64,000 bases of DNA from Candidatus Izemoplasma sp. GTDB taxonomy: Bacteria > Bacillota_I > Bacilli_A > Izemoplasmatales > Izemoplasmataceae. The translations under genes were made by a program, and so were the position numbers. The stretch is from assembly GCA_045046715.1 (NCBI GenBank), contig JASFZA010000007.1:14945-78944 (forward strand). Reading direction: 5' to 3'. The notes beneath the pieces are model-generated. The model made no database searches. It was not told the DNA's origin and worked only from the letters and a program-made list of their open reading frames with translations. This document shows, one piece after another, positions 5,963 to 28,662 of the stretch; position 1 is the stretch's first letter, and each line of letters opens with the position of its first letter.

Positions 5963-6454
5963 CTATTTATTTAAGTGTTCTATGACTTCCTCTTTAAATT
6001 CAATTTTAAAGCTAGGTAACTTAATAGTTTTTAACTTTAAGTCCTCAGGCGGCTTATACGCTAAGCTAATGTGCTGTATATAATCTGGGAACTTATTTTT
6101 ATAACCATGTGCTTTAACATAATGATCGAATCGTTCTTTAAGAATTTTAGATTTGATAGTTAAAACTACCGCTCTCCATTCTGTATCTTTCTCGCCTAAA
6201 TATTTAATTCCTACAATAGATCCTTTTTCTTTAACCTTAATAGGAGATTTACCTGGATCTAGATCTAAAGTTTCAATAGAATATACAATAGTTGCATGGA
6301 AGTCTTTAATAGGATCTAGCCCTAAAGATTCAGCATATTCTTTTAAGTTCTTATTAGTTTTAGCAGAGAACTTAGCACTAACATACGTGCCCTTTTCGTG
6401 TTCTTCATTTAAAAATTGTTCAAAATCCATCATCTTTCGCGATCCATCCACCAT
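5963..6454 (-). CDS. 2H phosphoesterase superfamily protein (LigT / Acb1-like)
   Basis: Two H-x-T/S motifs with appropriate spacing: FHATIVYS and QHISLAYK; size (about 155-163 aa) as for phage Acb1/LigT-type enzymes; start may be the MMDFEQ methionines. Confidence 0.55.
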   Translation of the reverse strand: MVDGSRKMMDFEQFLNEEHEKGTYVSAKFSAKTNKNLKEYAESLGLDPIKDFHATIVYSIETLDLDPGKSPIKVKEKGSIVGIKYLGEKDTEWRAVVLTIKSKILKERFDHYVKAHGYKNKFPDYIQHISLAYKPPEDLKLKTIKLPSFKIEFKEEVIEHLNK

Positions 6455-8480: not shown

Positions 8481-9149
8481 TTAATATATTTTTCTGCCTT
8501 TCTTCCAACCTTCTTGTAGATAGGAATCTTTTTTAACCTTTTTTGATTTTTGTAACTTTTCGTTAAAAATCCACATAGTACCATATTGTGAATTTTTCTT
8601 AGGATCTTTTAATCTTTCTTTAGCGGCTAAACTCATTTTTAATTTAGTTTGCTTGCTATGAGTTTTACCTTTCCAAGTGCCATTTGGATATTTTTCTTTA
8701 ATAGTAGCTCTACCTATTATTAATTTTTCTCGTCTCCAAAGATTTTGAGTATTAGCAAAAACTTTATTATTTTTATATTTCTTTTGGTATGCTTTAACAC
8801 CGGCTTTATGCCAAGCTAATCTTTGCCTTATTTGCTTTTCGGATTGAGGTAAATCATTAATATGATCCCACCCACCTTCGCCGCCTAATTTCAAATTATA
8901 AGTTTTATTATTATTTACAAATTCTTCATTAACTAATAAAGATTCTATTTTAAACATATCTTCTGGATTTGTAAATACTTTTAAAACTTTTTTAGTAAAA
9001 TTTTCTTTACCATATTTTTTAATAGAGTATTTTAAATGGTTTCCAGATCCTAAATAATCATCATTAATGTTTTTAGTTTTATGTACTCCAATATACACCT
9101 TTCCATTAATTTGATTAGTAGTTTTATAAACAGTATAATATATCTTCAT
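8481..9149 (-). CDS. GIY-YIG homing endonuclease (intact)
   Basis: MKIYYTVYKTTNQINGKVYIGVHKTKNINDDYLGSG (GIY...YIG), downstream R/E/N core context and basic C-terminal DNA-binding region; paralogs at 1832..2493 and 60559..61275. Confidence 0.85.
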   Translation of the reverse strand: MKIYYTVYKTTNQINGKVYIGVHKTKNINDDYLGSGNHLKYSIKKYGKENFTKKVLKVFTNPEDMFKIESLLVNEEFVNNNKTYNLKLGGEGGWDHINDLPQSEKQIRQRLAWHKAGVKAYQKKYKNNKVFANTQNLWRREKLIIGRATIKEKYPNGTWKGKTHSKQTKLKMSLAAKERLKDPKKNSQYGTMWIFNEKLQKSKKVKKDSYLQEGWKKGRKIY

Positions 9150-9189
9150 ACACTATTTATATGGTTCAAATCTAGTTTGAACCAAATGC

Positions 9190-9262
9190 CTCCCATAAAG
9201 GACTCGAACCTCTAACACCTAACTTAGAAGGTTAGTGCTCTATCCAATTGAGCTAATGGGAG
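9190..9262 (-). tRNA. tRNA-Arg (TCT)
   Basis: Acceptor CTCCCAT/ATGGGAG, anticodon loop CTTCTAA, T arm AGAGG-TTCGAGT-CCTTT; no encoded CCA. Confidence 0.85.
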
Positions 9263-12089: not shown

Positions 12090-12244
12090 TGGTCCAGAAG
12101 GATGGACTTTCACCACCAACCTTTCTCTTATGGTAAGCCCGGAAGGATTCGAACCTTCGACCGCCACCTTATTAGGGAAGCTGCTCTAACCTAACTGAGC
12201 TACGGGCTTGAGTGAGAACGCTCTAATTTTTGAGCTACCTCTGG
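12090..12244 (-). tRNA. split cloverleaf (tRNA-like) whose anticodon loop contains tRNA 12131..12209
   Basis: 5' half (12244->12210): CCAGAGG-TA-GCTC-AAAAATTA-GAGC-G-TTCTC-ACTC. 3' half (12130->12090): TAA-GAGAA-AGGTT-GGTGG-TGAAAGT-CCATC-CTTCTGG-A-CCA. All four stems pair; standard 76-nt geometry once the insert is removed. Confidence 0.6.
12131..12209 (-). tRNA. tRNA with unusual anticodon arm (loop CTAATAA, anticodon AAT, Ile-like; identity uncertain)
   Basis: Acceptor AAGCCCG/CGGGCTT, D arm GCTC-AGTTAGGTTA-GAGC, T arm GAAGG-TTCGAAT-CCTTC, encoded CCA; anticodon helix GCTTCC/GGTGGC is 6 bp with a U-U mismatch. Confidence 0.7.
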
Positions 12245-12252
12245 ATATTCTT

Positions 12253-12328
12253 TGGTGGGTCGCCGGAGACTTGAACTCCGCACCTTCAGATTAAAAGTCT
12301 GTTGCTCTACCTGATGAGCTAGCGACCC
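12253..12328 (-). tRNA. tRNA-Lys (TTT)
   Basis: Acceptor GGGTCGC/GCGACCC, anticodon loop CTTTTAA, T arm CGGAG-TTCAAGT-CTCCG, encoded CCA. Confidence 0.9.
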
Positions 12329-12332
12329 AATT

Positions 12333-12408
12333 TGGTACTCCTGGCTGGACTCGAACCAGCGACGTATGGATTATCGGTCCACTGTTCTACCAACTGAACT
12401 ACAGGAGT
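12333..12408 (-). tRNA. tRNA-Ile (GAT) with C at position 33
   Basis: Acceptor ACTCCTG/CAGGAGT, anticodon loop CCGATAA, T arm GCTGG-TTCGAGT-CCAGC, encoded CCA. Confidence 0.8.
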
Positions 12409-12434
12409 ATTTTTTATTTAGTCATTATATCAAC

Positions 12435-12442
12435 TATTTATA
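12435..12442 (-). promoter_or_regulatory. T4-type late promoter TATAAATA upstream of the Ile-Lys-nested tRNA cluster
   Basis: Exact TATAAATA on the minus strand 27 nt upstream of the tRNA-Ile 5' end, overlapping the stop region of ORF 12438..12902. Confidence 0.4.
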
Positions 12443-12902
12443 CTAAAGTAAACAGGTTTTTAAGGTTTTTAGTCTTTTTTATCTTTTTATTAGAAGAGAC
12501 TATTTTTAACTTGGGCTTATTGAAGACTTTAGGATGATCCAACTCTCCAAAACCTGGTTTATCTAAAGCCTCTGTTTCTGCGGTGCCATGGCTACCTAAG
12601 TTAAATATTAATCCTTCTCTTCTGTTCCCTCTAGGGAATATAGAAATTAGACTCTGCATGGGTATATACAAGTTCTGACTGATCCCAGAAAACATGGCGC
12701 TAAACATAATACCTTCTTCATCAATTTTAAGACCTAAAGTCGAAGAATATGATATATTAAAAACCACAACTCCGTTCTGACCTAGGCCTGGAGGAATCAT
12801 TAGATCTTTAAAATCTGTTCTAACCATAATTTCAGGAACACCGTTGGTATCAGTGATCCAACGGTGCATAGCCTCAACTAGATAATATTTAGACCCACTC
12901 AT
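12438..12902 (-). CDS. SspB-like ClpXP adaptor protein
   Basis: YLVEAMHRWITDTNGVPEIMV...GVVVFNISYSSTLGLKIDEEGIMFSAMFSGISQNLYIPMQSLISIF parallels E. coli SspB (YLLRAFYEWLLDNQLTPHLVV...IVLNIAPRAVGNLEL...FNARFGG...VSVPLAAVLAIY), followed by a flexible basic tail. Confidence 0.6.
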   Translation of the reverse strand: MSGSKYYLVEAMHRWITDTNGVPEIMVRTDFKDLMIPPGLGQNGVVVFNISYSSTLGLKIDEEGIMFSAMFSGISQNLYIPMQSLISIFPRGNRREGLIFNLGSHGTAETEALDKPGFGELDHPKVFNKPKLKIVSSNKKIKKTKNLKNLFTLV

Positions 12903-26728: not shown

Positions 26729-27550
26729 TTACACCTCTAAATTAAGTTTAGTTTGTTTTTGTGCTACTAATTCTGAAAATCTTTTAATCATTTTCTTAGA
26801 TAATGCAGAATCTGTGTCACAACTTAAAAGCATCTTATCATACTCTTGTTCTAAATTGTAACATTTTATGAAAGTAATAAAAAATTCGAGTATTTTTTGA
26901 ACTCTGGCATAATCTTTCCTTCCTTGGACAAATTTTCTACATTGAGTAATATTTCGATTGATAGTAGTTTGCAAGTTAGAATAATTATCTCCTTTAAATG
27001 TGTATAGCTCTGTTGGAACTAAAAATTTTCTAAGATTTGCTAATGCCTCTAATCTTTCTTTTCTAAAATGATTTAATCTTTTATATAAAACATCATAGTA
27101 TTTGTGAGTTGGGGGAGGAGTCAAAGCTTTAAACATTGATTGATTATTATTTTTAATACATTGCCTAATATAAGTACCTGACGTAAATCTTTCAGTTTTA
27201 ATTAAGGAAACAGGTTTGGGTAGATCGTATTTTTCGATATTAGTTTGATAGCTATAGTACCGATCTTCTCCAGCATATAAATTTCGATAATTGTATCCAT
27301 CATTATCGATATTGGTTAAGATATCGTTTAAAAAACCGGTAGAGCTTGGAATAATTTTAGCATTGGGAATATTAGAAGCGATTTCTCTTAATAATTCAAT
27401 ACGTTCCTCAATCTTTAAAGGATTTTTAGTCATTGTATCTTTGGTTGTATAAACAATCACAATGATCGGGTTCTTCATTGTTTCAAAGACTTTCAAATGG
27501 CCTAAATGGGGAGGATTAAACCTCCCAATTATTACATCTTGTTCTAACAT
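26729..27550 (-). CDS. HxGH nucleotidyltransferase (NMN adenylyltransferase / cytidylyltransferase-like) with uncharacterised C-terminal half
   Basis: VIIGRFNPPHLGHLKVFE signature at the N-terminus. Confidence 0.6.
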   Translation of the reverse strand: MLEQDVIIGRFNPPHLGHLKVFETMKNPIIVIVYTTKDTMTKNPLKIEERIELLREIASNIPNAKIIPSSTGFLNDILTNIDNDGYNYRNLYAGEDRYYSYQTNIEKYDLPKPVSLIKTERFTSGTYIRQCIKNNNQSMFKALTPPPTHKYYDVLYKRLNHFRKERLEALANLRKFLVPTELYTFKGDNYSNLQTTINRNITQCRKFVQGRKDYARVQKILEFFITFIKCYNLEQEYDKMLLSCDTDSALSKKMIKRFSELVAQKQTKLNLEV

Positions 27551-28662
27551 GGTTCGCCCATTTTGATGATAGAATTAATTAATTGTTTACGATCTGCTGT
27601 AATAATTTTAGAGCATCTTTTCTTAAGCTTCTTAAAATTAAATAATACAATTCTAAATACATCTTCTAAACCTGGCTCAGATTGAACCATTACTTCAAAA
27701 TATTCTTCTAGTTTTTTATAGTTGAGACGAGTAGGGCGCTTTGTAAAGTCAACTCTATTCTCTTGAATGTAATCATTGACACTATCTTTAATACCAGCGT
27801 AGACTAAACAGGATACGACAGAAACAAAGGAAATATAATCATCTTTGTGTAATATTTTTTTAGTTTTAATTAAAGACGAGTTTTTATCAATTTCGTCAAA
27901 AACTAAATCAATCATGGTATCGGAATATTTACTATAAGAACTTAATTGGAATTCTTCTTTCTTTTCTTTATGAAAAGTATTAAAAACAGGGTTTTGAATT
28001 TTATATGATTGGTTAGAAACCGTATCATGGATTACAAAACCTTCATTAGGAACAATTTTACCAGCGGTTAAAACTAAATCGAATAAAATGCGAAAGTAAT
28101 CTAAAGAAAATTCATCCATCTCTGCATATTTAGTACTTAATACTGTTTCTAAAGCAGATAGATCAATATCCTTAGCCAGTTTAATATTCGGCTGAGAGTC
28201 AACTTCTAAAATATTAGCAATTGTACTAGAATCACTTAAATATTGTCCATTACTAATTGCTAAAGACAATATAATACCACTTGTACCTTCTTCATCCATA
28301 AAATCCGTATAATCAATAATACTCGGCTGGTATTTAGATTTAGAAAATTGTAAAGTTTCATCTAAAACTTTCGGAAAGATTTCTAAATGGATTTCCGTTC
28401 GATTCGGGATTAAATCTAATCTTTTAGAATTTAAAAATTCTATAGCGCCTTCATAGATCCCGACTCCGATTCTTTTAACATTATCTAATGGAACTTTAGC
28501 TCTAGAATAATAATTAATTTGTCCATTTTCATCTTTTTCTAATATTAAGCAAACCGCATCAATTTTTACATTGCACATAATTTGCCCAAGTTTGCTTCTT
28601 CTACCAAACATAGATTCTAATAAACCTAGATCTTTGAGCATTGCTGATTGCAAAGTTTTCAT
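27544..28662 (-). CDS. ligase-like covalent nucleotidyltransferase (possible RNA ligase)
   Basis: Candidate motifs I NVKIDAV (K33), III IHLEIF (E94), IV NEGFVIHD (E207), V YKIQN (K221); spacing resembles T4 Rnl2 (K35, E99, E204, K225/K227). Confidence 0.45.
   Translation of the reverse strand: MKTLQSAMLKDLGLLESMFGRRSKLGQIMCNVKIDAVCLILEKDENGQINYYSRAKVPLDNVKRIGVGIYEGAIEFLNSKRLDLIPNRTEIHLEIFPKVLDETLQFSKSKYQPSIIDYTDFMDEEGTSGIILSLAISNGQYLSDSSTIANILEVDSQPNIKLAKDIDLSALETVLSTKYAEMDEFSLDYFRILFDLVLTAGKIVPNEGFVIHDTVSNQSYKIQNPVFNTFHKEKKEEFQLSSYSKYSDTMIDLVFDEIDKNSSLIKTKKILHKDDYISFVSVVSCLVYAGIKDSVNDYIQENRVDFTKRPTRLNYKKLEEYFEVMVQSEPGLEDVFRIVLFNFKKLKKRCSKIITADRKQLINSIIKMGEPC

Follow-up and report, generated by a model that had tools for sequence, protein, structure and literature searches.

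A tRNA gene nested within the anticodon loop of another in phage DNA

A complete tRNA gene lies inside the anticodon loop of a second tRNA-shaped element at positions 12090-12244 of the window, by which is meant the whole 64,000-nt stretch of phage DNA analyzed here, and there is very little doubt that this nested architecture is real. Judging from sequence comparisons, tRNA-in-tRNA nesting is found again in unrelated contigs of phages, in which the outer element often has the features of a fully canonical tRNA, and its presence in at least six unrelated phage lineages amounts to a new kind of disrupted tRNA gene. Gene finders overlook the outer gene entirely, so that phage tRNA repertoires are under-counted. 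A tentative proposal, held with rather less than even confidence, is that these phages use an undescribed form of tRNA splicing in which a tRNA serves as the intron; with end-processing enzymes and a phage ligase, two tRNAs would then come from a single 150-nt gene, the outer of which would depend on that ligase to mature.

Architecture of the nested unit

The nested unit is read on the minus strand. Its outer 5' half (12210..12244, 35 nt), CCAGAGG-TA-GCTC-AAAAATTA-GAGC-G-TTCTC-ACTC, contains the 5' strand of the acceptor stem, the D arm (loop AAAAAUUA, without GG), the 5' strand of the anticodon stem and ACUC, the first four nucleotides of the anticodon loop. The outer 3' half (12090..12130, minus strand, 41 nt), TAA-GAGAA-AGGTT-GGTGG-TGAAAGT-CCATC-CTTCTGG-A-CCA, supplies UAA as the last three loop nucleotides, the 3' strand of the anticodon stem, the variable loop AGGUU, the T arm (loop UGAAAGU), the 3' strand of the acceptor stem, the discriminator A and CCA. 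Between the halves, separating positions 35 and 36 of the outer anticodon loop, is inserted the inner tRNA (12131..12209, minus strand, 79 nt), which runs from +1 to an encoded CCA and has the anticodon AAT (ARAGORN, Rfam). The bases and coordinates given in an earlier note on this locus were all correct, and the geometry that it described for the two flanks and the inner tRNA is exact, as found by re-reading the sequence and with ARAGORN; its interpretation as a whole is partly supported.

Once joined, the outer halves make 76 nt, with a 7-bp acceptor stem (one G.U), a 4-bp D stem, a 5-bp anticodon stem, a 5-bp T stem (one G.U), a 5-nt variable loop, a 7-nt anticodon loop (ACUC|UAA), a discriminator A and CCA. 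Every pair is formed in the acceptor stem (7/7), the anticodon stem (5/5) and the T stem (5/5), giving 17/17, or 21/21 stem pairs overall. The outer element takes the geometry of a canonical tRNA (RF00005; 7/4/5/5-bp stems, ~76 nt) only once 12131-12209 is removed. A tRNA scan after this deletion, as the earlier note had proposed, leads ARAGORN at default settings to call the joined outer sequence tRNA-Arg(TCT), i.e. Arg(UCU). With the gene in place, the outer element escapes the intron modes of ARAGORN (-i, -io), and Infernal does not report it at the locus, where it is masked by the inner tRNA. The junction that joining would create (GUUCUCACUC-UAAGAGAA; longer form GTTCTCACTC-TAAGAGAAAGG) is absent from the DNA. 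The minimum-free-energy fold of the joined outer sequence (RNAfold) is exactly this cloverleaf, at -22.6 kcal/mol and 49% of the ensemble; by the same criterion the full 155-nt segment folds as one cloverleaf enclosed in another, with separate outer and inner domains.

The inner tRNA and the surrounding array

The inner tRNA is called tRNA-Ile(AAT) by ARAGORN and matches the Rfam tRNA model at 54.7 bits (E = 5e-9, threshold 29). Its D loop carries GG, its T loop is TTCGAAT and its CCA is encoded, all features of a canonical tRNA; it is atypical in having A34 and an anticodon stem of 6 bp that includes a U.U mismatch. It is very probably released as a functional tRNA. The encoded CCA was considered as a hallmark of inner tRNAs and rejected, since it is shared by most tRNAs of these arrays.

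Directly upstream of the nested unit, on the same strand, lies tRNA-Lys(TTT) (12253-12328, minus strand), preceded by tRNA-Ile(GAT) (12333-12408, minus strand), both found with ARAGORN and Rfam. These genes and the nested unit, which ends the array, are arranged head to tail with spacings of 4 nt and 8 nt, and the three are therefore probably carried on one transcript. Just upstream of the block is a promoter-like site (12424..12452, minus strand) with TTTACT, a 17-nt spacer, TATAAT and an upstream TG, scoring 10/12 in a consensus scan, a pattern match alone. The tRNA region of the window also contains an ORF with the homing-endonuclease-associated NUMOD3 motif.

Controls for chance

None of 20,000 dinucleotide shuffles of the joined outer sequence was called a tRNA. 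An excision scan, in which every 60-100-nt segment was deleted at every position of the window on both strands (~5.2 million trials), produced a junction-spanning tRNA at the nested locus alone, save for chimeras of adjacent real tRNA genes. When 1,263 ordinary tRNAs were excised in 3.07 Mb of other DNA, an outer tRNA appeared solely at identified nested units. The nested geometry is thus non-random. Scored with a sequence-only HMM built from the tRNAs of this phage, the joined outer sequence reaches 6.3 bits (shuffles, at most 8.5) against 36.7 bits for the inner tRNA, and the tRNA-likeness of the outer element of the window is structural, not one of primary sequence.

Nested units in other viral contigs

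A search of IMG/VR with the pattern TAGCTCAN{6,10}GAGCN{15,22}TAGCTCAG, that is, two D-arms 15-22 nt apart, found 49 loci, 13 of which passed an ARAGORN test for both an inner and an outer tRNA. Between 15 and 17 of 17 outer stem pairs are formed at 10 of the 29 distinct loci, compared with 1 of 1,400 swapped-locus controls. The scores are bimodal: 17/17 is reached by seven loci, which fall into six sequence families, and the remainder resemble controls. Nested units were found in six unrelated families with perfect outer stems, three with near-perfect ones and one with weaker ones. Class A was defined as units whose inner tRNA is detectable alone and spans +1 to an encoded CCA, and whose outer element has a 7/7 acceptor stem, a 5/5 anticodon stem and at least 4/5 T-stem pairs, with about 7 loop nucleotides left; the window unit, with 17/17 pairs and a 7-nt loop, belongs to it, and L025/L051, L029 and L031 show the same two values.

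The insert is an exact mature-tRNA unit, from +1 to CCA, in four families, and excision leaves a 7-nt loop in the window and in L025/L051, L029 and L031. In the last three families the loop is canonical, with U33 and A37: excision gives CUU|CUAA (Arg-UCU) in L051, CUUUU|AA (Lys-UUU) in L029 and CUG|UUAA (Asn-GUU) in L031. The corresponding joined junctions, ACGGCCUU-CUAAGCCGU (longer form AACGGCCTT-CTAAGCCGTCGG) for L051, CACTTGACTTTT-AATCAAGTGG for L029 and ATCCGGCTG-TTAACCGGAAGG for L031, are absent from the DNA. The joined outer sequence of L051 aligns end to end, across the junction, with annotated, uninterrupted tRNA-Arg genes from cultured phages (query coverage of at least 80% in 475 records), as does that of L031 with annotated, uninterrupted tRNA-Asn genes (278 records at the same coverage). 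In the array portions covered, the outer elements of L025, L029 and L031 are the sole Arg, Lys and Asn(GUU) tRNA, respectively, as expected for a gene in use. When six nested units were compared with cultured phages at the level of near-identity, no match was obtained.

Insertion sites vary across nested units (34|35, 35|36 and 36|37), and not every unit is exact. L035 and L049 score 17/17, and exact excision in L035, L049 and L041 leaves 6-, 8- or 9-nt loops (8 nt in L035, 6 or 8 nt in L049). Non-canonical outer elbows occur in L031 (T loop AUCGUGC), L039 (UUAAAAU) and L047 (UUAGAUU), but not in the inner tRNAs of these units. Inner anticodons with A34 are found in the window, L031 and L039, compared with 24 non-Arg A34 tRNAs among 1,285. 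For several units, independent assemblies come from different metagenomes (L025/L046/L051, L049/L054/L071 and L041/L067). At 19 distinct loci a tRNA 5'-half-like fragment abuts the +1 of a tRNA without a matching 3' half, and in L043 a tRNA is split by 1.1 kb that has a tRNA at its start and also contains ORFs, an arrangement that could not be spliced through tRNA processing.

A 3'-side pattern (two T arms 29-34 nt apart) recovered L025 alone among the first 120 loci listed. In genome and metagenome collections, the matches listed for the D-arm pattern were a different, extended-stem class (L080, L111, L201, L238) and unrelated tandem repeats. Related contig pairs are 99-100% identical and for that reason uninformative on selection; the only diverged pair, L026/L037, has the 5' fragment and no 3' half.

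The outer element of the window

The outer element of the window is the oddest of the nested units. The earlier note had pointed out that both elbow partners are missing, and the sequence bears this out: the D loop AAAAAUUA and the T loop UGAAAGU are without G18G19 and psi55-C56, T54 and A58 are kept, and position 19:56 would be U:A. Its suggestion that the loss was co-varying is a reasonable reading, since loss of the D-loop GG strongly tracks loss of the T-loop TTCRA, which is gone from 33 of the 46 tRNAs without GG versus 76 of 1,239 others (1,285 tRNAs). The joined loop, A32-C33-U34-C35-U36-A37-A38, has A37, but U33, near-universal in tRNAs, is replaced by C33. Absence of both G18G19 and psi55-C56 is seen in 2.6% of the 1,285 tRNAs, and absence of U33 together with these two in 0.1%. 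The outer sequence has no match among phage tRNAs (best E = 0.6), and its apparent Arg(UCU) specificity is redundant with a conventional tRNA-Arg(TCT) at 9188..9262 on the minus strand (ARAGORN; Rfam, 63.4 bits; alignment).

Five near-universal loop positions are thus changed, yet all 21 stem pairs are kept, an outcome that neutral decay would not leave behind. C33 and the redundant tRNA-Arg(TCT) at 9188-9262 argue against the element as a working decoder, and it is probably not a standard one. Given the lost U33, G18G19 and psi55-C56 and the duplication of Arg(UCU), its product would be expected to be a non-decoding tRNA-shaped RNA, or the gene to be on its way out; that a rejoined product decodes AGA is very doubtful.

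Possible processing of the nested transcript

In the pathway favored here, RNase P would cut at the inner +1, leaving the outer 5' half with a 3'-OH, and an endonuclease of the RNase Z/BN type would cut after the inner CCA, freeing the inner tRNA and giving the outer 3' half a 5'-phosphate. The ends produced by RNase P and RNase Z are 3'-OH and 5'-P, and breaks with such ends in tRNA anticodon loops are sealed by T4 Rnl1. The outer halves, held by 12 inter-half pairs (seven in the acceptor stem and five in the anticodon stem), would form a cloverleaf nicked in the anticodon loop, and an ATP-dependent RNA ligase, for which the product of ORF 27544-28662 is the candidate, would seal the nick to give a 76-nt tRNA-shaped RNA. 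In the other phages, where the outer element is predicted to be an ordinary tRNA-Arg, tRNA-Lys or tRNA-Asn, the sealed product would be a working tRNA. Maturation of bacterial precursors that encode CCA usually involves a downstream endonuclease cut and exonuclease trimming, so that the 5' end of the outer 3' half would not be precisely defined, which counts against the pathway. Also weighing against it are the deviant loop sizes in L035, L049 and L041, the split tRNA of L043, the altered and redundant outer element of the window, and, for the ligase-like gene, its distance of 15 kb, its cytidylyltransferase-like partner and the lack of homologues in the flanks covered for other nested units. 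In its favor are the chance controls, the recurrence of the architecture, the canonical loops restored by exact excision, the alignments with uninterrupted phage tRNA genes, the outer specificities found nowhere else in the array portions covered for L025, L029 and L031, the stem pairs kept in the window and the RNA-repair genes near nested units. From sequence, rejoining of the outer halves in vivo appears possible, at a little under even chances, and the full pathway including rejoining is put just short of evens as well.

Should the outer halves be rejoined, tRNA splicing would have a third route, one that draws entirely on RNase P, a 3' endonuclease and a repair ligase, and phage RNA ligases would gain a routine job besides repairing nuclease damage. 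The varied insertion sites and the inserts spanning exactly +1 to CCA would suggest that nested genes arise when a repair ligase inserts an entire mature tRNA into an anticodon loop that a nuclease has broken, followed by copying of the product back into DNA. Nested units also bear on the conflict between phage and host over tRNAs and anticodon nucleases. Arg-UCU, Lys-UUU and Asn-GUU belong to the isoacceptor groups targeted by known anticodon nucleases.

The candidate sealing enzyme is a divergent RNA-ligase-like nucleotidyltransferase of 372 aa (27544..28662, minus strand), 15 kb from the nested unit and separate from the DNA ligase of the phage (14192-15547). The ORF itself has no Pfam, PHROG or PDB sequence match, and 27 remote homologues were found. 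In a 25-sequence alignment K33, D35, R64, E94, E207, G208 and K221 are invariant; the ORF has the motif I lysine (KxDG-like) and motifs III, IV and V, and 4 of the 25 homologues match PF09414 RNA_ligase. An AlphaFold2 model (pLDDT 82) has T4 Rnl2, T4 Rnl1 and the tRNA ligase Trl1 as its best Foldseek matches (E ~1e-4, TM ~0.3), with DNA ligases close behind. The invariant motif residues, the RNA_ligase homologues and the structural matches agree with the earlier note, which had called the gene ligase-like, and together they point to an RNA-ligase-like protein that may be the sealer of the outer halves. No homologue of it was found in the flanks covered for other nested units, and the contigs of its homologues have almost no tRNAs within 10-kb flanks. 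Near other nested units are a Pnkp-type kinase fused to an HD domain (L025) and a ligase with an RNA_ligase match (L031). DUF2828 proteins beside two nested units, checked for Ro60/TROVE likeness, had no PDB sequence match.

Alternative explanations

It could also be hypothesized that the nested unit is an insertion scar, in which a tRNA gene or a mature-tRNA copy landed in the DNA of an anticodon loop and killed the resident tRNA gene, so that the inner tRNA alone is functional, the outer halves are a leader and a trailer that are degraded, and the perfect stems reflect either a recent insertion or a tendency of phages to delete dead DNA before it decays. Several data fit this explanation: the window outer element has lost five near-universal loop nucleotides, duplicates tRNA-Arg(TCT) at 9188-9262, lacks sequence similarity to phage tRNAs and reaches 6.3 bits against the phage's own profile; L035, L049, L041, L039 and L047 have loops other than 7 nt or stem mismatches; and the 19 distinct loci with a 5'-half-like fragment lacking a 3' half, the 1.1-kb tRNA-plus-ORF cassette that splits the tRNA of L043 and the NUMOD3-motif ORF in the tRNA region of the window are in line with insertion. 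However, neutral decay would break many of the 21 stem pairs that survive five loop changes in the window, and the outer-stem scores are bimodal and form no continuum of decay. The unique specificity of canonical outer elements in the array portions covered also speaks against a scar, and random DNA insertion does not predict inserts that run exactly from +1 to CCA in four families. Such a scar is accordingly considered rather unlikely.

The outer cloverleaf might alternatively be kept for its shape and not for decoding, which is judged improbable. As a scaffold, a self-contained leader-trailer fold would shield the folding, RNase P cleavage or 3'-end processing of an unusual inner tRNA; as a decoy, the nicked or sealed outer element would be tRNA-shaped bait for a host tRNA-targeting nuclease. 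Perfect stems in the window combined with loss of the elbow and U33, which are needed by the ribosome, EF-Tu and synthetases, are what would be expected from either version, as are the non-canonical outer elbows of L031, L039 and L047 beside normal inner tRNAs, and a lowest-energy fold that keeps the outer and inner domains separate. The odd inner tRNAs with A34 in the window, L031 and L039 would suit a conflict with host anticodon nucleases (for context, PMC10264068). A scaffold of this kind has no known precedent, however, and a simple leader-trailer helix would serve the purpose at lower cost than an entire cloverleaf. Neither version explains the canonical, non-redundant outer elements elsewhere, whose anticodon is rebuilt exactly on excision.

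Chance resemblance, with flanks of an ordinary tRNA that happen to pair, or a chimeric contig, is given almost no credence and is effectively already refuted: the window is one metagenome-assembled contig without a second assembly, but 0 of 20,000 shuffles, 0 non-tRNA sites in ~5.2 million excision trials and none of ~1,250 other tRNAs tested yielded an outer tRNA, other units with this architecture are known from independent assemblies of different metagenomes, and a chimeric join cannot create 17 complementary stem pairs across a tRNA.

Comparison with known systems

A tRNA acting as the intron of another tRNA had no described case according to the earlier note, and the literature searched likewise did not describe any tRNA that interrupts a second one. 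Bacterial and phage tRNA genes are taken to be uniform in structure, and group I and II introns have been regarded as the sole significant structural exception among bacterial tRNA genes in a 2014 review (PMC4033280). The tRNA genes that they interrupt in bacteria, plastids and phages are likewise broken in the anticodon loop and need removal of the insert from the transcript. However, these introns are self-splicing ribozymes of at least 200 nt, whereas the window insert is a 79-nt tRNA without intron features, the removal of which would depend on RNase P together with a 3' endonuclease and a protein ligase. For the group I ribozyme core (P3-P9), no Rfam intron match was obtained in the window (gathering threshold), at the locus (E <= 10) or in 11 nested loci, tRNA alone being found.

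Protein-spliced introns of archaea and eukaryotes (EndA/TSEN, with RtcB or Trl1) also lie in or near the anticodon loop, and there too the halves remain base-paired and are reconnected by a ligase. What is cut out can be a functional RNA, as the inner tRNA would be here; the archaeal tRNA-Trp intron carries a box C/D RNA. These introns differ in position, at 37|38 compared with 34|35, 35|36 or 36|37 in nested units, and in their ends, which are 2',3'-cyclic phosphate and 5'-OH, whereas 3'-OH and 5'-P, the substrates of Rnl-type ligases, are predicted here. Their splicing endonuclease is absent from the bacterial and phage context. In the predicted fold of the window unit, the junctions are unpaired stretches of 4 nt (ACUC) and 7 nt (ACCA+UAA) that link the outer anticodon stem (5 bp) to the inner acceptor stem (7 bp), and a bulge-helix-bulge motif (two 3-nt bulges, 4-bp helix) is absent from them. 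Split, tri-split and permuted tRNA genes of Nanoarchaeum, Caldivirga and Cyanidioschyzon are processed with RNase P and tRNase Z (PMC4033280), and their halves likewise assemble through acceptor and anticodon-stem pairing. However, split and permuted genes use the splicing endonuclease and a bulge-helix-bulge, and none has a second tRNA as insert or is bacterial or phage-borne.

In the repair system of T4, in which PrrC cuts tRNA-Lys, Pnk heals the ends and Rnl1 seals them, a phage ligase reseals an anticodon-loop break, as proposed here, and RNA-repair genes also lie near several nested units. There, a host nuclease breaks a finished tRNA and end-healing is required, whereas the break considered here would be encoded in the gene and its ends would need no healing. 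Multimeric tRNA precursors of the T4 type also have several tRNAs cut by RNase P from one transcript, but in tandem and not nested. The stable RNAs C and D of T4, unexplained small RNAs that end its tRNA array, were considered as analogues and rejected, because rnaC and rnaD give no nested tRNA under any internal deletion.

Relatives of the locus and of the ligase

No relatives near the locus were found in INPHARED, IMG/VR, GTDB representative genomes or a 5.8-billion-protein database. Specifically, megablast and blastn of the locus against 50,697 phage records gave no matches, exact junction and arm motifs found no relatives in IMG/VR (15 motif matches were rejected as chance matches in coding DNA), the 3' end of the inner tRNA had no match in GTDB genomes, and searches anchored on the proteins of two flanking genes, the SspB-like one and the DNA ligase, returned no relative of the locus. 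The closest ligase relatives (61%, 52% and 46% identity) are on contigs of 1.9-4.2 kb that end before the tRNA block, and more distant ones are not syntenic. The RNA-ligase-like gene at 27544-28662 has a conserved partner in the window, coding for a cytidylyltransferase-like protein (26729..27550, minus strand; PF01467; Pfam, PHROGs); L433 and L434 have this gene pair as well, and the two domains are fused in 5 of the 25 homologues.

Structure of the nested unit

By ARAGORN, the window contains 17 tRNAs, every one of them minus-strand. A strong promoter-like site precedes a tight array of tRNA-Ile(GAT), 4 nt, tRNA-Lys(TTT), 8 nt and, as last member, a nested unit (12244->12090). Direct reading of the minus strand gives an outer 5′ half at 12244->12210 (CCAGAGG-TA-GCTC-AAAAATTA-GAGC-G-TTCTC-ACTC), a complete 79-nt tRNA with CCA at its end at 12209->12131, and an outer 3′ half at 12130->12090 (TAA-GAGAA-AGGTT-GGTGG-TGAAAGT-CCATC-CTTCTGG-A-CCA), agreeing base for base with the sequence set out in the earlier note. 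The inner gene is a tRNA-Ile(AAT) by ARAGORN and scores 54.7 bits with the Rfam tRNA model. At default settings, the joined flanks are called as a 76-nt tRNA-Arg(TCT) with stems of 7/4/5/5 bp and the loop ACUC|UAA, and their minimum-free-energy structure (RNAfold) is exactly this cloverleaf, with 49% of the ensemble; both programs recover the outer cloverleaf that had been proposed to appear on excision. Left uncut, the 155 nt are predicted by RNAfold to form two cloverleaves, one sitting in the anticodon loop of the other.

The outer cloverleaf around the inner tRNA is not due to chance. The joined outer sequence was given 20,000 dinucleotide shuffles, and not one was called as a tRNA. When each 60-100-nt segment was deleted at each window position on both strands (~5.2 million trials), junction-spanning tRNAs arose only at the nested locus, besides chimeras of neighbouring real tRNA genes, and single excision of 1,263 ordinary tRNAs (3.07 Mb of other DNA) yielded an outer tRNA only at identified nested units. 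Full-text literature searches, with most subscription journals lying outside them, gave no account of a tRNA that lies within another tRNA or serves as its intron, in line with the earlier note, which knew of no such case. In a review of disrupted tRNA genes, group I/II introns are the only significant exception to the uniform tRNA genes of bacteria, and phages are not mentioned (PMC4033280).

Recurrence in other phages

The window comes from a contig of 120.5 kb whose deposition is as a 'Candidatus Izemoplasma' MAG. The contig is a T4-like phage (~32% G+C) encoding a DNA ligase, topoisomerase II subunits, a family B polymerase, clamp, clamp loader, UvsX-like RecA, ribonucleotide reductase and Acb1. 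Close relatives were not found in INPHARED (50,697 phage records), IMG/VR, GTDB genomes or protein-anchored searches, and the few contigs with the nearest DNA-ligase homologues either end before reaching the tRNA block or lack synteny. With the window outer sequence as query, the 50,697 phage genomes likewise gave no match (best E = 0.6). Because sequence relatives were not found, the architecture itself was searched for, using the spacing of the D arms, which lie only ~17-20 nt apart in a nested pair and never so in tandem arrays. The pattern TAGCTCAN{6,10}GAGCN{15,22}TAGCTCAG has a single match in the window, none in window shuffles, and matches on 49 IMG/VR viral contigs. On 13 of these 49, cutting out the inner tRNA at the ends set by ARAGORN left flanks that ARAGORN called as an outer tRNA, joined within its anticodon loop. 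Base-pair counts made independently of ARAGORN at 29 distinct loci were bimodal: seven loci have 17/17 outer stem pairs, the families at this level being six (the window, L025/L051, L029, L031, L035 and L049/54/71; L-numbers denote other contigs or loci, most from IMG/VR). Three further loci have 15-16 pairs, and the remainder are indistinguishable from swapped-locus controls (n=1,400), only one of which reaches 15. Several units were assembled independently out of different metagenomes. Infernal confirmed all inner tRNAs (53-80 bits) and found no intron or Y-RNA family at the nested loci. The nested architecture is certainly real, and the window unit is one example of a phage gene architecture that recurs and is apparently undescribed.

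When the inner tRNA is taken out exactly, from +1 (the first nucleotide of the mature inner tRNA) to CCA, the outer loops that remain are CUU|CUAA in L051 (Arg-UCU; both U33 and A37 present), CUUUU|AA in L029 (Lys-UUU) and CUG|UUAA in L031 (Asn-GUU). Annotated, uninterrupted tRNA-Arg and tRNA-Asn genes from cultured phages align with the joined outers of L051 and L031 over their full length, junction included, with 475 and 278 records, respectively, covering at least 80% of the query; the joined L029 outer has similar, less specific matches. Judged by sequence, the outer gene in other phages is an ordinary tRNA. In L025, L029 and L031, the outer specificity is absent elsewhere in the covered part of the tRNA array, and the outers look like genes in use, ones that tRNA finders silently overlook.

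Proposed processing and a candidate ligase

RNase P cleavage at a tRNA +1 leaves the upstream piece with a 3′-OH, an RNase Z/BN-type cut behind the 3′ end gives the downstream piece a 5′-phosphate, and T4 Rnl1 seals 3′-OH/5′-P breaks in tRNA anticodon loops. Bacteria do not usually cut precisely behind an encoded CCA. In the nested unit, RNase P at the inner +1 and RNase Z/BN-type cleavage past the inner 3′ end would free the inner tRNA, the release of which is very likely. The outer halves, paired with each other at 12 positions, would stay together as a cloverleaf already nicked, needing a ligase alone for sealing. On this analysis, rejoining of the outer halves in the window phage is a serious possibility somewhat short of an even chance, and it appears more probable for the canonical units of other phages.

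The phage encodes a probable RNA ligase at 27544-28662 (minus), 15 kb away from the nested locus. This ORF has no family or PDB sequence match of its own. An exhaustive HMMER search gave 27 remote homologues, and residues K33, D35, R64, E94, E207-G208 and K221 of ligase motifs I, III, IV and V are invariant in an alignment of 25, four of which match Pfam RNA_ligase. The predicted structure (pLDDT 82) has T4 Rnl2, T4 Rnl1 and a fungal tRNA ligase as its best matches, and together these data bear out the description of the ORF as ligase-like. The phage DNA ligase is a separate gene. The ORF is partnered by a cytidylyltransferase-like (PF01467) gene at 26729-27550, an adjacency conserved in T4-like phage contigs (L433:6810-8845, L434:487-2522) and replaced by fusion in 5/25 homologues; because of this conserved partner, the true substrate of the ligase-like protein may be something else. 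Elsewhere, L025 encodes a fusion of a Pnkp-type polynucleotide kinase with an HD domain ~5 kb from its nested unit, and L031 carries a ligase with an RNA_ligase match on the contig of its unit. This association of RNA-repair genes with nested units is suggestive and uncontrolled, since tRNA-rich phages often have such genes (PMC7824862).

Possible insertion scars and possible selection for shape

Of two main rivals to rejoining, the reading of the unit as an insertion scar seems somewhat unlikely, and it draws on imperfect units. Excision leaves loops of 6, 8 or 9 nt in some (L049, L035, L041), and the outer stems of L039 and L047 contain mismatches. At 19 distinct IMG/VR loci, a 33-39-nt fragment resembling a tRNA 5′ half (acceptor strand, D arm and anticodon-stem strand) abuts exactly the +1 of a complete tRNA, and a 3′ half to match the fragment is not present in the vicinity; loci with such a fragment only are L027, L030, L034, L036, L038, L042, L045, L050, L055, L058, L060, L062, L064, L066, L069, L070, L072 and others. 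In the pair L026/L037 (90-92% identical), the fragment is 100% conserved. In L043 (reverse strand, unit start ~3836) and L057, an insertion of ~1.1 kb interrupts a tRNA-Thr(UGU)-like gene whose acceptor (7/7) and anticodon stem (5/5) are fully paired; the insertion starts exactly at the +1 of tRNA-Lys and contains two ORFs, one of which, with a D...(D/E)xK-like string, might encode a nuclease. The off-size loops, stem mismatches, lone 5′ fragments and L043 indicate that DNA-level insertion into anticodon-loop DNA occurs and can wreck the gene.

The window outer has C33 rather than U33 and is without G18G19 and psi55-C56, and only 0.1% of 1,285 tRNAs lack U33, G18G19 and psi55-C56 together. A profile of the same phage's tRNAs gives it 6.3 bits. 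It duplicates the specificity of a normal tRNA-Arg(TCT) at 9188-9262, and it is unlikely to decode. The loss of both elbow partners, described earlier as co-varying, is consistent with strong joint loss across the 1,285 tRNAs, in which TTCRA is missing from the T loop of 33/46 tRNAs without D-loop GG versus 76/1,239 others. All 21/21 stem pairs are intact, and on direct reading the contacts U8-A14, A9-A23-U12, G10-C25-G45, C13-G22-G46, G26-A44, A15-U48 and T54-A58 are still possible, with 19:56 readable as U:A. These intact pairs and this possible tertiary framework make the pattern unlike neutral decay, and they fit selection that acts on shape and not on decoding. The second rival, in which the outer RNA serves as a shape-only scaffold or decoy, builds on this pattern and is, in our estimate, rather unlikely.

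Other features of the phage and of nested-unit contigs

Embedded in the tRNA region of the window is a gene for the anti-CBASS protein Acb1 (5963-6454, minus; Pfam E = 5e-25), a homologue of which adjoins a homologue of the ligase-like ORF in contig L432. Directly beside tRNA-Arg(TCT), an ORF at 8481-9149 (minus) carries NUMOD3, a DNA-binding motif associated with homing endonucleases, and is reminiscent of segB in the T4 tRNA cluster. By our own tally, CCA is encoded in 13/17 tRNAs of the window phage and is absent from tRNA-Arg(TCT) (9188-9262) and tRNA-Asn (2537-2610); at least two of its tRNAs therefore depend on a CCA-adding activity. In a phage array of 21 tRNAs, the 240-nt spacer that separates tRNA-Pro from tRNA-Asp (L008:7883-8121) contains an exact 17-mer, GGTGGTGAAAGTCCATC, of the window outer T arm, which may be chance; the spacer has no Rfam match and no nested structure.

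The inner tRNAs of nested units are frequently unusual. Those of 3 of ~9 families (window 12131-12209; L031:794-870; L039:524-597) have A34 anticodons (Ile-AAT, Phe-AAA, Asn-ATT), against 24 non-Arg A34 tRNAs among 1,285 overall, and in two further inner tRNAs (L035, L047) the anticodon loop is not 7 nt. The contigs of L049:1702-1776, L054:8130-8204 and L071 are 98.7-99.6% identical over aligned blocks; the 1.8-kb block with the unit has seven differences, several within the inner anticodon arm, and the inner call switches from His(GTG) to Asn(GTT) with identical outer halves. On the unrelated contigs L029 (539-1993) and L031 (4374-5852, minus), a DUF2828+DUF7788(+vWA) protein without a PDB sequence match lies a few kb from the unit; this family may be Ro60/TROVE-like. 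Nested-unit contigs also carry a skipping-rope RNA (Rfam RF02924, 60 bits; L025:1708-1777) and a tmRNA (68 bits; L035:5296-5678).

Among the matches listed, L197, L204, L212, L217, L220, L230 and others (metagenome samples Ga0224501 and Ga0224511) fit the architecture pattern and are not nested tRNAs; contigs of the L197 type carry a tandem tRNA D-arm-like motif in up to 11 copies with a period of ~70 nt. A second nested class, also among the matches listed, comprises genome and metagenome contigs (L080:2394-2552, binned as Saccharibacteria, L111, L201 and L238). Exact excision gave no ARAGORN outer tRNA in these four. The anticodon arm of their outer tRNA-like element is extended to 10-11 bp and bears at its tip a complete tRNA (Val-GAC or Thr-GGT, without encoded CCA), and their lowest-energy folds are nested double cloverleaves.
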